DNA from: Eledone cirrhosa
Lineage: Eukaryota
Length of the DNA stretch: 64,000 bases
Direction of reading: 5' to 3'
Assembly (NCBI GenBank): GCA_964016885.1
Contig: OZ024753.1
Span: forward strand, 18,228,001-18,292,000
Made by a program: the position numbers and the translations under genes. Under the pieces are notes generated by a model. That model had not been told where the DNA came from. It made no database searches and saw only the letters and a program-made list of their open reading frames with translations. Shown here piece after piece: positions 3,478 to 59,823 of the stretch; the first letter of the stretch is position 1, and every line of letters starts with the position of its first letter.

Positions 3478-3700
3478 TATTGTTATACTTTGGGAGGGTC
3501 ATGTTGCCAATAAGAAACACACGCACCAGACGATTTCACTCCAATTTATTATAAATTTTATTTATAATAAATTGGAGTGAAAGCGACTGGTGCGTGTGTT
3601 TCTTATTGGCAACATGACCCTCCCAAAGCATAACAATAACGGTTTCAACACACGTTTTCAGAAAAAAGGATCTTGCTAAATAAATTCAGAAACGAAATAT
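3478..3700. repeat. Fold-back of the PLE terminal sequence seen at 805-935
   Basis: 3478-3556 is the reverse complement of 3562-3637; the right arm continues to the element end gaaacgaaatatata. Confidence 0.9.
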
Positions 3701-4388
3701 ATATAGTATTGTTTACCACTTATAATTGTGAATAATGAGGACTTGTGAATTTCATGCTATTCTATGCGACGTATAATTCGTTCTACTCAATATCTCATGA
3801 CCACACAATAGAACGTCAAAGCTGGAGAAGAGTGTTATCGTAACTTTTTCCATTCCTGACAGACATCTTCAGAATTTTACACAAACTGTCTTGCAGTGTT
3901 TATTTACAACTCTCCACACTTGATATTAGTTAAATATTAGTTTTTGACATCAGCACTGAAAATCGATACAAAAACATTTTGTTCAGTTTGTAGCGTTTGA
4001 AAAACGTATATATAGCAACAACATGTTTTAAATATCTATATCTAGAGAAAGCTTAAGCAGATAAAAAGAGAAACCCGTATAATGCATGTGCAATATGGAT
4101 CCATCAGAAATATAATACCCTCCATATATTTGTATAACTAGTAAACCTCCTTCAGGGATGTGTAACTTCGGAATATCTTTTATTGCCGAATAGAATGCTT
4201 TGTGGTATTTATTCGGGATATGTGGATGTGAGATCAGAAAAAGTAAGGAGTTTAAATTACACAAGAGCCTGCTTTAATTTTATAATTACAAGTTCGATAA
4301 AAATGATACCTGTTACGTTAAGCGGTTTAACATTAACTATATTTCGTTCTCTCCCCATCACTCTTTCTTTCCCCCTCCCCATCTCTCT

Positions 4389-4969
4389 ATGTATATATAT
4401 ATATAATATATATGTATAAATATATATAATATATATATATGTATATATATACATATATATAATATGTATATATATATATATATATATATATATATATATA
4501 TATATATATATATATATGTATATATATAATATATATATATATAATATATATATATATATGTATATATAATATATATATATATAATATATATATATATATT
4601 ATATATATTATATATATTATATATATATTATATATAGACATATAAATATATGTTACATATATATATATGTATATATATATGTATATATATATATATTATA
4701 TATATATACATATATACATATATATATATACATATATATATATATATTATATATATACATATATATATATATTATATATATATATATATATTATATATAT
4801 ACATATATATATATATTATATATATACATATATACATATATATATACATATATATATATATATATATACATATATATATATATATTACATATACGCATAT
4901 AAATATATATATTATATATATATATATATATACATATGTATATATATATATATATGTATACATATATAT
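4389..4969. repeat. Long degenerate (TA)n microsatellite
   Basis: Direct reading. Confidence 0.95.
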
Positions 4970-5682
4970 GTAGTAGAATAATCGAGTATCGAAAAATCGG
5001 CGCACGAGTTCACGATAAACAAAATTCGAGATGAGCAGCAGAGGGCTCTATAATTGAAATAAATCAGAGCTATAACTATCGTTAAAATACCGTCACACGT
5101 AGAATATGTCTACAATCAACCAAATAACCGAAAAGTTCGATATGGAAGATTCGGAACACTCAGATAAATTATCAATAAATCAATAAATGAAATAAATGTA
5201 AAAAGCATACCCGGACCCACTAGAGAGATGGAATATCTAGCTTCTTGGGTTTCTGTAAATCCTTAAACCGTCATCTATCAGCTCACATAAAAATATAAGA
5301 CTTACAGACAAACGGGGGACTGGAGTTACTTCATCACCGAGCTTTGTCCGAATGGATGAAAAGACAAGACCCAGGCTAAAAATACGCACATGGATTTCAG
5401 CAAGGGAGATAACCTTCATATCCGCAAAAATATTCGGAAAAATGTGGCAAAAACACATATCAATAAGAGTGCTCAATAGACATGTTCAAATAAACAGGGG
5501 CTATTCATCATTTAATAGAATCGACAAAAAATGAACAATAAAATTAACTGGCCAATAGCTAAGTCTAGAGCTAAATATAGTAGAATAATCGAGTATCGAA
5601 AAATCGCCGCACGAGTTCACGATAAACAAAATTCGAGATGAGCGGCAGAGGGCTCTATAATTCAAATAAATCAGAGCTATAT
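4970..5682. mobile_element. Non-coding ~600 bp interspersed element with ~105 bp direct terminal redundancy, in (TA)n
   Basis: 4970-5073 is approximately 5579-5682; blocks shared with 7950-8596 and 47245-47826. Confidence 0.7.
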
Positions 5683-5764
5683 ACATATATATGTATATAT
5701 ATATATATATATATATATATATATATATATATATATATATATATATATATATATATATATATAT

Positions 5765-6192
5765 AGTGTGGTTGTAGGGGCTCTCACAGGAGCACTGAGT
5801 GCAATGTCAACTCTGGATGTTGGTGAGCATGTCCAGCTAACCTCAGTCTCCTCTGTGTCACTTGCGAGCTGACTTTTGGGAGGCTACCATACAGCTCTGA
5901 GTTTTTCATCGTCAGTGTATACTGATTAATGTTCACAACCATCCTCAGCATTCTCGTTTATCCCCCATCCAACATCTGAATGAGTTTATTGGTCAATGTC
6001 CAAGTCTCAGACCCGTACAACACCACATACTCCACTACAGCAATGAAGAGGCGTATTTACAGGTTAACATATGTTGATGCCCTAAGGACAGACACCGGCC
6101 TGTTGGAGACGCAGGACATGGCAGCGATAATGAGGGAGAGGGACCGCTGGAGAGAACTCGTCCATGGATCTCGGGAATTTTACCCGCCCTAG
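5765..6192. mobile_element. LINE (RTE/RTE-X-like) 3' fragment with 5' inversion
   Basis: Minus strand 6058 to 5765: IRLFIAVVE.VVLYGSETWTLT..LDG..RMLR..LYG.LP..RRLRLAGH..LL*EP; plus strand 6059-6192: RLTYVDALRTDTGL..MRERDRWRELV. Confidence 0.85.
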
Positions 6193-6330
6193 AATATATA
6201 TATATATATATATATATATATATATATATATATATATATATATATATATATATGAAATACATATGTGTATATACATATATATATATATATATGAGGGTGT
6301 TAAAGTTTGCTTGAAGCATTGTGAAATATG

Positions 6331-57438: not shown

Positions 57439-57707
57439 CAGGGAGTGTAACTTGAAATTAGTGTAGGTTCACCCAGGTTGGCACTCGATGTTTAGATTCA
57501 CGTTTGTAGCGAGGTGTAGAGTTAAACAGAATGTAAATATAATAATACAGGGACGATTTGTTAAGCCTTCAGCAGAGGTCTGACTAGCTTTTGACTTCCA
57601 GAGTCGGGCCAGATCGATACAGATCGAACTTTGAACTGATAAATAGCGAAACGCGCGTCACCCATCAATAAACGTAATGAAGGCCTAACAAATCGTCCTT
57701 GTATTAT
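57439..57707 (+). mobile_element. Short HHR element (family of 11649); HHR at 57577-57662
   Basis: ggt-CTGACTA-gct...agc-GAAA-cgcgcg-TC-acc; internal inverted copy of its own 3' end at 57542-57570. Confidence 0.8.
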
Positions 57708-58789
57708 ATATATATATATATATATATATATATATATATATATATAAGTATTGAAGTTTCCGTTGAAAATTGAAAAAGTCATAGGAGTGAAGAGTGCTCT
57801 ATGTAAGAACCAGAGCTAAATTTAATGTATAATAAACAATACAATATAATTACCTCATTACCAGAGGTTTCCCGAATAAGACGAATACAAGAAATGTCCT
57901 CATTCGTTCGTCAGACAAGGCAATTTGAAACATAGTGAAATATTTGAAAAATCTCCTCAGGAAAGGCAAAAGTTTAACGGGCAAAAAAACATATATAAAT
58001 AAAAGTAATGCAAGAGATATATAAAAAACAAAATAAGGAAATATAGTTAGGGTATGTGTATAAATGTGTGTATATTCACTCACAAATGTACATATGTGTG
58101 TATGTACAAATGCATGTGTATAGTGAAAAGATGTGTGCGTAAGTACATATATGAGGGCAATCATAACCGTGTATGTGTTACCACAAATACGTATATAATA
58201 TATGTTGAAAAAGAAATTGTAAGACAATAGAGTTAACGTACATCCAGACTCAGGTATTAAGGATTGAAATATATACACATACAAGTATGAAAGCACGCGT
58301 ATAAACAGACAAACGCGCGACCACATACATGCGAGTTATTTATACAGTGAAGGGAGTGTATCAGTCAAAGCAGTGTCAGTCTGAAGGTCGATACATAAAC
58401 AATGAAAAAATGAAAAAAATATATGTGAATAAAAAAAAATTAAAATGAAAGAGAATGTAAGAGGGAGGGGTTATCATTTATAAAGTAACCCTAGAAAGAA
58501 TAGAAAAATAGAAAAAATAGAAAAAATAGAAAACAAACAGGTTCGTACTACATATATATATATATATATATATATATATATATATATATATAAATATATA
58601 TATAAATACGTACAAACAAAAGCACAGACATGCGTACATACCTACAAAGGCGCGCATACATACACACGAAGCATATATATATATATATATATAGGCATAT
58701 GTATATCTAATCGCACGCACGCACGCAACCATATATATATATATGTGTACACACATACATACACATATATATATACACATATACAGATG

Positions 58790-59092
58790 TAAGATGGTTA
58801 AAAGAGTTCCATCTATTTTATTATGCGCATTTCAAAAACAAATATCATCATGAGATGACATTTGCGTTTTCGTCAGATAAAATAGGGATACATGATATGA
58901 AGGTTAAAAAACACTTGTGAATATATATATGCTGATTTAAAACTTCACTATTCACAAGTGTTTTTTAACCTTCATATCATGTATCCCTATTTTATCTGAC
59001 GAAAACGCAAATGTCATCTCATGATGATATTTGTTTTTGAAATGCGTATAATAAAATACATGGAACTATTTTAACCATCTTTTGATCTTACA
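58790..59092. mobile_element. Palindromic pLTR-like element (family of 12004) with HHRs at 58814-58884 (minus) and 58988-59058 (plus)
   Basis: tattttat-CTGACGA-aaacgcaaatgtcatc/gatgatatttgttttt-GAAA-tgcgca-TA-ataaaata. Confidence 0.9.
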
Positions 59093-59209
59093 TTATATAT
59101 ATATATATATATATATACATATATATATATATATATACATTATGAAGAGAGAAGTAACATTTAGATATAATTAGTAATAAAATGTATCATACCTAAACTG
59201 CTTCTAGAT

Positions 59210-59299
59210 TCCTCGACTACGTAGTTTCGTGGCATAGACACAAACAATACATCATAAAGATATAGAGCTTTTGCGAGGTCTGCCGACTTATCAAGAGGA
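59210..59299 (-). ncRNA. HHR with U3-A8 core variant and long loop II
   Basis: tcctc-TTGATAA-gtcggca...tgccac-GAAA-ctacgtag-TC-gagga. Confidence 0.7.
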
Positions 59300-59561
59300 T
59301 ACCTCGTTTTACTAGCCTAAGAACGCGTCTATATGATGTGAGAAAGAATCCCAAAAGGCGGCGGGGGAGACAGTCACGTGATACAATGGTCAAGAAACAG
59401 AGCTAAGCACCTTATAACCCCGAAAAAAATACTACGGAGGCGGAGGGGTTATTTATCCCGAAGCCGTAGAAGAGGTGGTTAAGGAGACGAGAAGTATGAG
59501 TAATGGCAGCTTTCCAGCAGTCACTACACTTCAAAGATTACTCGACCAGTGGGAGTTATGA

Positions 59562-59823
59562 ACAATATATTGAGAAACAAACAGATACATGCGGACACAC
59601 ACATATACATGAATATATCCACATTCATCCCTGAGTTAATGGTACTTCATAATGTACTTTTAGCTCTGATACTGGTTCAGTCTAGTCCATTCGAATTGGT
59701 CTGTCCCAGTTATTCATAGAGCAACATCGGTTAAGGTTGGCACCATTAACTCAGGGATGGATGTGGATATATTTATGTATATGTGTGTGTCCGCATGTAT
59801 CTGTGTGTTTCTCAATATATTGT
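59562..59823. repeat. Inverted repeat, ~83 bp arms, ~95 bp spacer
   Basis: acaatatattgagaaaca..ccctgagttaatggt / accattaactcaggg..tttctcaatatattgt. Confidence 0.9.

Follow-up and report, generated by a model that had tools for sequence, protein, structure and literature searches.

In Penelope-like elements (PLEs), the head-to-head arrangement of two copies is described as 'most frequently observed' and has been explained by self-priming on an antisense template (PMC3846280). The inverted, 5'-truncated copy sits at the 5' end, a tail of 30-40 bp is often present at one end only, and insertion is biased toward (TA)n; the origin of the tandem and inverted structures has been listed as open (PMC8557442). 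The purified protein of one PLE, Poseidon PAc from Anolis, cuts and extends both strands in vitro and initiates synthesis at two internal positions, one at each boundary of the tail; a dimeric form is predicted (PMC11167929). These sources are cited here and below for the portions covered. We describe head-to-head PLE insertions (left arm antisense, right arm sense) in a 64,000-nt stretch of the 3.0-Gb genome of Eledone cirrhosa (the window; G000:C13:18228001-18292000) and in samples from elsewhere in the genome. Nearly every two-armed insertion combines a short 3' end with a long one, an arrangement that on balance points to both nicked target strands being primed on a single RNA.

Four families of the window (F1, F3, F5 and F10) were sampled across the genome as the best-scoring hits of each family query. 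This gave 120 loci, of which 13 belonging to the same insertion or array were dropped and 107 kept. Every sampled family has two fixed 3' ends, one short (S) and one long (L), separated by 91, 57, 63 and 76 nt in the four families and by 57-132 nt when a fifth is included. An inverted (antisense) arm abuts the 5' end at 60 of the 107 loci, and the other 47 are one-armed. Among the 60 two-armed loci, 52 pair L with S, 2 pair S with S, none pairs L with L and 6 could not be classified (2x2 table with rows 2, 34 and 18, 0; Fisher p 2e-12). One insertion is built of one S end and one L end, near-strictly (52/54). The original prediction held that both outer junctions are element 3' ends; the 3' ends do face outward, but they are usually two different 3' ends.

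The same pairing appears with other queries. Tail-only queries gave an S partner at 21 loci, an L partner at 5 and another kind at 1, and two of the five L partners continue as a tandem copy that ends at S. The fifth family, which has a 132-nt tail, gives 6/6 L+S among 20 loci, with partners up to 1 kb away, and the F10 body query returns 9 L+S and 0 L+L. In the window itself, 12 insertions are clearly L+S, 2 nearly so and 2 S+S, and one duplicated structure is L+L (Table 1). Two genome queries (window:52611-52712 and L130:1574-1634) matched nothing, so query-based sampling does not cover the window's commonest hammerhead family or the F3 tail. Neither the near-strict rule nor tail-only inverted arms were found in print, in a literature search that lay outside subscription papers. 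We rejected self-targeting at the S site of an old copy, as it would leave an antisense remainder past the S end, which is seen in 0/107 loci. Separately, L112-L117 and L127 (G000:C17:13538389-13540993) form a tandem array of ~70-nt S-ended F3 stubs with TA spacers of varying length.

In 23 of the 52 L+S events, the S arm outruns the L arm in the 5' direction by >15 nt and the tail is confined to the L arm, so that neither arm is contained in the other. One fold-back cannot make such arms unless the centre is deleted later. The L arm consists of tail only in 12 events, several of them 97-100% like the reference copy. Inner ends lie within 15 nt of each other in 23 of the 52, and the L arm extends further in 6. 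The L-arm ends concentrate at S: in F10, 8/23 fall within -10..+5 of S versus 6 in the next 115 nt (p 7e-5), and in F1, 12/29 fall within -42..0 versus 3 in the next 98 nt (p 1e-4).

Arm overlap is often 50-500 nt. Where arms overlap, the inner ends match within 15 nt in 23/40 cases, compared with 12.6 in within-family shuffles (0 of 20000), and the matches include idiosyncratic positions (-495/-503, -120/-121, -101/-102). Sister arms differ by 4.8%, versus 6.8% to other copies, and are the closer pair in 36/49; 28/49 sister pairs share a non-majority base. F1 and F10 show this signal clearly, F3 and F5 weakly. At the central junctions, BLAST alignments overlap in 27/52, mostly by 1-8 nt. The 5' ends accumulate at or close to a CATATG palindrome in F1 (-164 to -170) and F10 (-145 to -152) and cluster at the hammerhead stem I edge in F5 (-68 to -80), counts that are biased by query choice.

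On balance, we favor the reading that L+S head-to-head insertions arise when one RNA, with its two fixed start sites, serves as template for priming by both nicked target strands; the data fit such twin priming better than two hammerhead-paired RNAs or self-priming. In the pathway we infer, a dimer would act on a single RNA, each active site presumably taking one start site. The S-primed cDNA would extend 5'-ward. The L-primed cDNA would copy the tail and either halt at or near S, giving a tail-only inversion as in L1 twin priming, or displace the first cDNA and continue, giving an inverted repeat. The two cDNA 3' ends would then be joined, often through an overlap of 1-8 nt, and repair would finish both strands. 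Priming from both nicked strands, which the original prediction had proposed, is supported and has an in vitro precedent (PMC11167929).

Several observations weigh against this reading. Exceptions to the L+S rule occur as S+S at 39717, 58935 and L023 and as L+L at 41.3k, L221 and L254, and the recurring layouts L009/L019/L028 and L246/L254 may each descend from one composite. Body queries cannot return tail-only arms as main hits, so that events with a longer S arm are overcounted. F3 has no tail-only arms, and its arms show no consistent leader (S ahead in 3 events, L ahead in 4, the two matched in 8). In F5 and F3, roughly half of the sister arms resemble each other no more than they resemble other copies. 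All F1 stops at -42..0 fall downstream of the position where the hammerhead is predicted to cut (-43), so that those L arms could stem from a cleaved second RNA. Tail-only arms could also be left by a later, lopsided deletion of a palindrome centre. Finally, matched inner ends and shared variants follow from fold-back as well, and shared variants also from gene conversion.

Dual priming on two RNAs, the version given in the original prediction, is the first alternative, and we regard it as unlikely. The RNAs would perhaps be paired through a palindromic stem III of the hammerhead ribozyme (HHR), in an asymmetric complex whose subunits start at S and L. It accounts for long overlapping arms without strand displacement, for F1 pairs in which the L arm ends downstream of the HHR cut and the S arm extends across it, and for the L+L case at 41.3k, whose arms are only 82% alike. 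The window HHRs have a short, often near-palindromic stem III, and PLE-type HHRs with a short stem III are reportedly dimer-forming. However, two RNAs with free start choice predict about half L+L or S+S, and same-end pairs make up 2/54, so that an extra asymmetry is needed. Nor are the matched idiosyncratic inner ends predicted, and F10 keeps the rule although no sense HHR was found in it by descriptor search. The two-RNA dimer version is therefore not supported. In vitro, no strand difference in start site was seen, which suits two RNAs, while HHR catalytic mutants leave insertion unchanged, a result that does not address dimer pairing (PMC11167929).

Self-priming is equally doubtful. Here, a cDNA or antisense template would fold back on itself at a short palindrome and be copied, a staggered endonuclease cut would confine the tail to one side, and central deletions would later shorten the product. 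This route has been proposed for PLEs (PMC3846280) and, for the tail, in PMC8557442. It predicts the L+S pairing, matched inner ends and shared variants, and perfect palindromic centres exist at 12165, 11467 and 17778. The mutually unique arms and the tail-only L arms that are nearly identical to the reference copy argue against it, as does the piling up of L-arm ends at S, which deletions would spread. In addition, there is no hairpin centre where a spacer of 0.4-2.8 kb separates large inverted segments, and both tail boundaries match RT (reverse transcriptase) start sites determined in vitro (PMC11167929).

Assembly or long-read fold-back chimeras, or the chance adjacency of separate insertions in common (TA)n tracts, are very improbable: separate insertions do stack in TA tracts, yielding tail-to-tail rows, and the available reads come from a relative (mostly 90-95% alike) and give no locus-level support over 10095-11590, where a short interspersed element (SINE) dominates, but the arms show a mean difference of 4.8% and terminate at the S and L sites of their family, inverted partners number 60 at 5' ends versus 0 at 3' ends, and raw Illumina reads from three individuals of the relative carry the opposite-strand joint 12170/12322 (79, 89 and 124 reads). 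This joint fuses the 5' end of the F1 body to the tail start; its reads have 2-4 start points and likely derive from one shared locus.

If twin priming on one RNA is correct, two-ended integration may, more tentatively, be the normal PLE pathway, with a dimer that primes both target strands on one RNA, each subunit using its own dedicated start site. A single reaction would then yield the tail, the tail-only inversion or the inverted pseudo-long terminal repeat (pLTR), depending only on how far the trailing RT advances beyond the leading RT, and the flanking (TA)n may partly be written at insertion. Microsatellite flanks both sides in 73/94 head-to-head events; few empty sites were recovered, and TA tracts mask target-site duplication. 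The self-complementarity of (TA)n may help both strands anneal, since the S and L sites are mostly AT-rich. A pre-existing (TA)n appears not to be required, on the strength of a single case. The 17778 hairpin (window 17496-18015) lies between 27 and 56 nt of TA, whereas the corresponding host-element site in its sister arm and 18 other copies (19/19 uninterrupted) has at most about three TA units. The tract therefore arose at or after insertion, or had expanded in that copy beforehand, and this single case hints that (TA)n can be generated at insertion. It was the one clear case without TA in the empty-site searches; in a few others, TA already trailed another element's end.

The window is AT-rich, with dinucleotide tracts totalling ~8.7 kb, and is crowded with decayed retroelement pieces bearing GIY-YIG endonuclease fragments and type I hammerhead motifs (the HHRs of this report; descriptor hits kept at score ≥13). 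Masked self-BLAST detected ~20 inverted repeats, an unmasked run being swamped by TA. At least 15 fold-back insertions had been claimed, and every one named was recovered with its spacer: the hairpins centred at 11467, 12165 and 17778 (loops of 1, 0 and 2 nt), those at 28850, 35140, 25890 and 59690, and the spaced pairs at 7.0k, 10.5k, 18.5k, 27k, 40k and 51.5k. Further repeats lie at 3558, 20.8k, 21300, 27.7k, 34830, 39717, 41.3k, 46.6k and 58935. The '40k' pair does not stand as one insertion. It is probably two, because the left arm of the small 39717 hairpin pairs with a separate, 86%-identical copy.

Arm orientation was assigned with a segment library anchored on descriptor HHRs, with SINE sequence trimmed out. 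It gave 13 head-to-head rows versus 1 tail-to-tail in the window and 32 versus 4 (36 oriented rows) in an outside sample of 800 kb, comprising 200 kb of flanking sequence and 600 kb from 15 other contigs; a few head-to-head rows share one event, and the majority of the sample's inverted-repeat rows are unorientable. The polarity originally noted in about 11 cases thus holds within the window and beyond. The window's tail-to-tail row (49050/50572) consists of two separate copies 1.46 kb apart with microsatellite between them. In three of the four outside rows, a TA tract or 1.4 kb separates the two element ends, and the fourth is ambiguous. No tail-to-tail neighbor (antisense S or L copy) occurs within 250 nt of the 3' end at any of the 107 family loci. 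Arms of the oriented window repeats are 77-98% identical. The orientation of 35140 relies on an HHR in a homolog, and 7.0k and 18.5k are oriented by the strand of endonuclease ORF (open reading frame) fragments, that of 18.5k by a visible motif, as its ORF has no Pfam hit. No full sense HHR was found in the families of 11467, 28850, 59690, 21300 and 27.7k, which hence have no independent orientation, and the 17778 family has only a weak HHR candidate in 1/12 copies. The window fold-backs are real and PLE-derived, and their head-to-head polarity, being the published PLE architecture (PMC3846280, PMC8557442), is not new.

Inverted pairs of an abundant SINE-like family, present in both orientations, break the head-to-head rule and are mistakable for PLE hairpins. 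Its copies lie at 10998-11220, 15850-16344, 23812-23967, 26992-27183, 27704-27930, 44769-44989, 55082-55416, 56180-56882 and 60559-60766. The window pairs 21234/23823, 56180/56869 and those at 55k were rejected as false orientation calls from SINE in the library. At 21128-21472 is an old palindrome (70% identity) with a SINE fragment inside; it has no homolog in the 1.5 Mb sampled.

The PLE origin that had been proposed is borne out by GIY-YIG ORFs upstream of the HHR, sense-strand type I HHRs and 5'-truncated inverted copies. GIY-YIG (PF01541) matches lie at 34-531, 2122-2523 and 6698-7102 (E 3e-4 to 2e-5), with weaker ones at 30670 and 50681, and the F3 and F5 reference copies have a GIY-YIG ORF upstream of the HHR. 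RT-like motifs are readable at 42192-42584; this region has no Pfam RVT_1 match and stands at 0.91-0.93 to eukaryote clusters in Atlas, one set being 19% RVT_1. Cys motifs are visible by eye in ORFs 34-534, 2119-2523 and 43207-43554. The HHR descriptor gives 8 hits in the window versus 0 in 5 block shuffles, and 55 in 864 kb versus 1 in one shuffle. It found no sense HHR in F10 or in the 28850, 59690, 7.0k and 18.5k families, and an Rfam scan of the window gave no hammerhead family among the matches listed (150 of 168). Among those, the one above its gathering score (TwoAYGGAY, 17700-17857) is a hairpin/TA look-alike, and the microRNA (miRNA) matches are likewise hairpin or TA look-alikes. The sampled families show 5' truncation with a tandem or inverted copy and an optional tail. 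MITEs (miniature inverted-repeat transposable elements) of DNA transposons were rejected, because one outer end is L and the other S, the inner ends are variable and 47/107 loci are one-armed. F10 also occurs in tandem arrays (L183, L184, L231, L232, L244) as a fixed-length, non-coding unit of ~510 nt with a 30-nt spacer. It has PLE-type S and L ends, yet neither a sense hammerhead nor an ORF was found, and it is possibly a non-autonomous unit of an HHR-less PLE.

Table 1. Insertions and associated features of the window, with the 3' end carried by each arm
Position	Strand	Feature	Arm ends	Details
3478..3698		head-to-head insertion, family F3, locus L118	left antisense S; right sense L (57-nt tail)	family has an HHR and an upstream GIY-YIG ORF, 34-531 (PF01541 E 3e-4)
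6293..7703		head-to-head insertion	left antisense L tail; right sense S	
6698-7105	+	GIY-YIG ORF in spacer of 6293..7703		PF01541 E 1.6e-5
10090..10980		head-to-head insertion, 386-nt spacer	left S; right L-like	tail partly missing
11247..11590		hairpin, family F10, locus L171	left L; right stops 17 nt short of S	oriented only from which ends are fixed and which vary
12003..12420		perfect hairpin, family F1	left S; right L (91-nt tail)	both arms with HHR variant; centre palindrome CATATG
16932..19549		large head-to-head insertion	left antisense 132-nt L tail; right S	left arm split by 17778 hairpin
17523..17915		hairpin nested in left arm of 16932..19549	left L; right S	flanks 27 + 56 nt TA
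18586-18894	-	endonuclease-like ORF in spacer of 16932..19549		
25505..26230		hairpin	left L; right S	HHR 25773-25819 (-)
26312..28195		head-to-head insertion, 1.3-kb spacer	left L; right S	two SINE-like copies and small nested inverted repeat in spacer
28730..28915		small hairpin	left L; right S	half-HHR-like motif only
34626..34940		hairpin, window's commonest HHR family	left L; right S	
35008..35290		hairpin	left S; right S + ~20 nt of tail	
39645..39786		hairpin, family F5, locus L141	S+S	exception
41097..41465		antisense tail joined to sense L-ended copy	L+L	exception; arms 82% alike; HHR 41273-41338 (+)
41471..45620	+	decayed long PLE	L end at (TA)n	HHR 45439-45503
41781-43078		RT fragments of 41471..45620		
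43207-43554		endonuclease-like fragment of 41471..45620		
46363-46876		repeat of 41097..41465 structure		within local duplication
50473..52720		head-to-head insertion, 1.9-kb spacer	left L; right S	HHR 52611-52675 (+)
50681-50986	+	GIY-YIG fragment in spacer of 50473..52720		
58790..59090		hairpin, family F1	S+S-like	exception; full HHR in each arm, 58814-58884 (-) and 58988-59058 (+)
59500..59822		old hairpin	left at least 60 nt past S; right S	arms 77% alike; no HHR found; left boundary approximate

Other features surround these insertions. A 1.8-kb segment at 28997-30800 has strong G skew (~+0.6) and a GC of 0.50-0.54; inside it, a GIY-YIG-like ORF (30401-30799, -) lies head-to-head with an endonuclease fragment (30670-31314, +). 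Short elements between TA tracts at 4972-5677 and 7951-8595, with direct repeats of 99 and 38 nt, resemble tandem pLTR units, and the second has a 73% copy at 47251-47828. Minisatellites occur at 46533-46711 (22 nt, 8 copies, within a hammerhead region) and 48172-48522 (37 nt, 9.5 copies). At 62630-64000, preceded by a TA tract, is a frameshifted fragment of a different reverse transcriptase gene, of the long interspersed element (LINE) type.

The one-long/one-short rule links the in vitro result of two start sites and two strands to genomic structure and, together with the tail-only arms, makes the question of how PLE structures originate testable. It also accounts for a densely occurring class of hairpins in the genome, mistakable for MITEs, miRNA precursors (many sub-threshold Rfam hits) or assembly errors. 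A twin-priming model for PLEs was not found in the literature searched, although subscription papers (Arkhipova 2006; Evgen'ev and Arkhipova 2005) may hold one.

The insertions described here resemble published endonuclease-positive PLE units in being 5'-truncated, with an inverted copy at the 5' end, head-to-head and with palindromic junctions, and also in the often one-sided tail, the (TA)n association, the type I HHR near the 3' end and the C-terminal GIY-YIG domain (PMC3846280, PMC8557442). They differ in tail length, 57-132 nt versus 30-40, and in a one-sidedness that is near-strict and includes tail-only inverted arms; no published count of this was found in the literature searched. The window endonuclease fragments carry upstream Cys motifs, which are tied to Neptune/Nematis and not to Poseidon (PMC8557442). 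PAc shares the two start sites bounding the tail, the cutting and extension of both strands and AT-rich targets, and the portions of that report covered do not address inverted copies or start-site linkage within one insertion (PMC11167929). In L1 twin priming on the same RNA, as in the dual priming on a second RNA proposed for L1, to which the two-RNA version corresponds, the second nicked strand primes and 5' ends meet centrally, as here (PMC2837659). In L1, however, the internal site varies and the arms overlap little (PMC2837659), whereas here the site is fixed per family, the arms often overlap extensively and two-armed copies are common.

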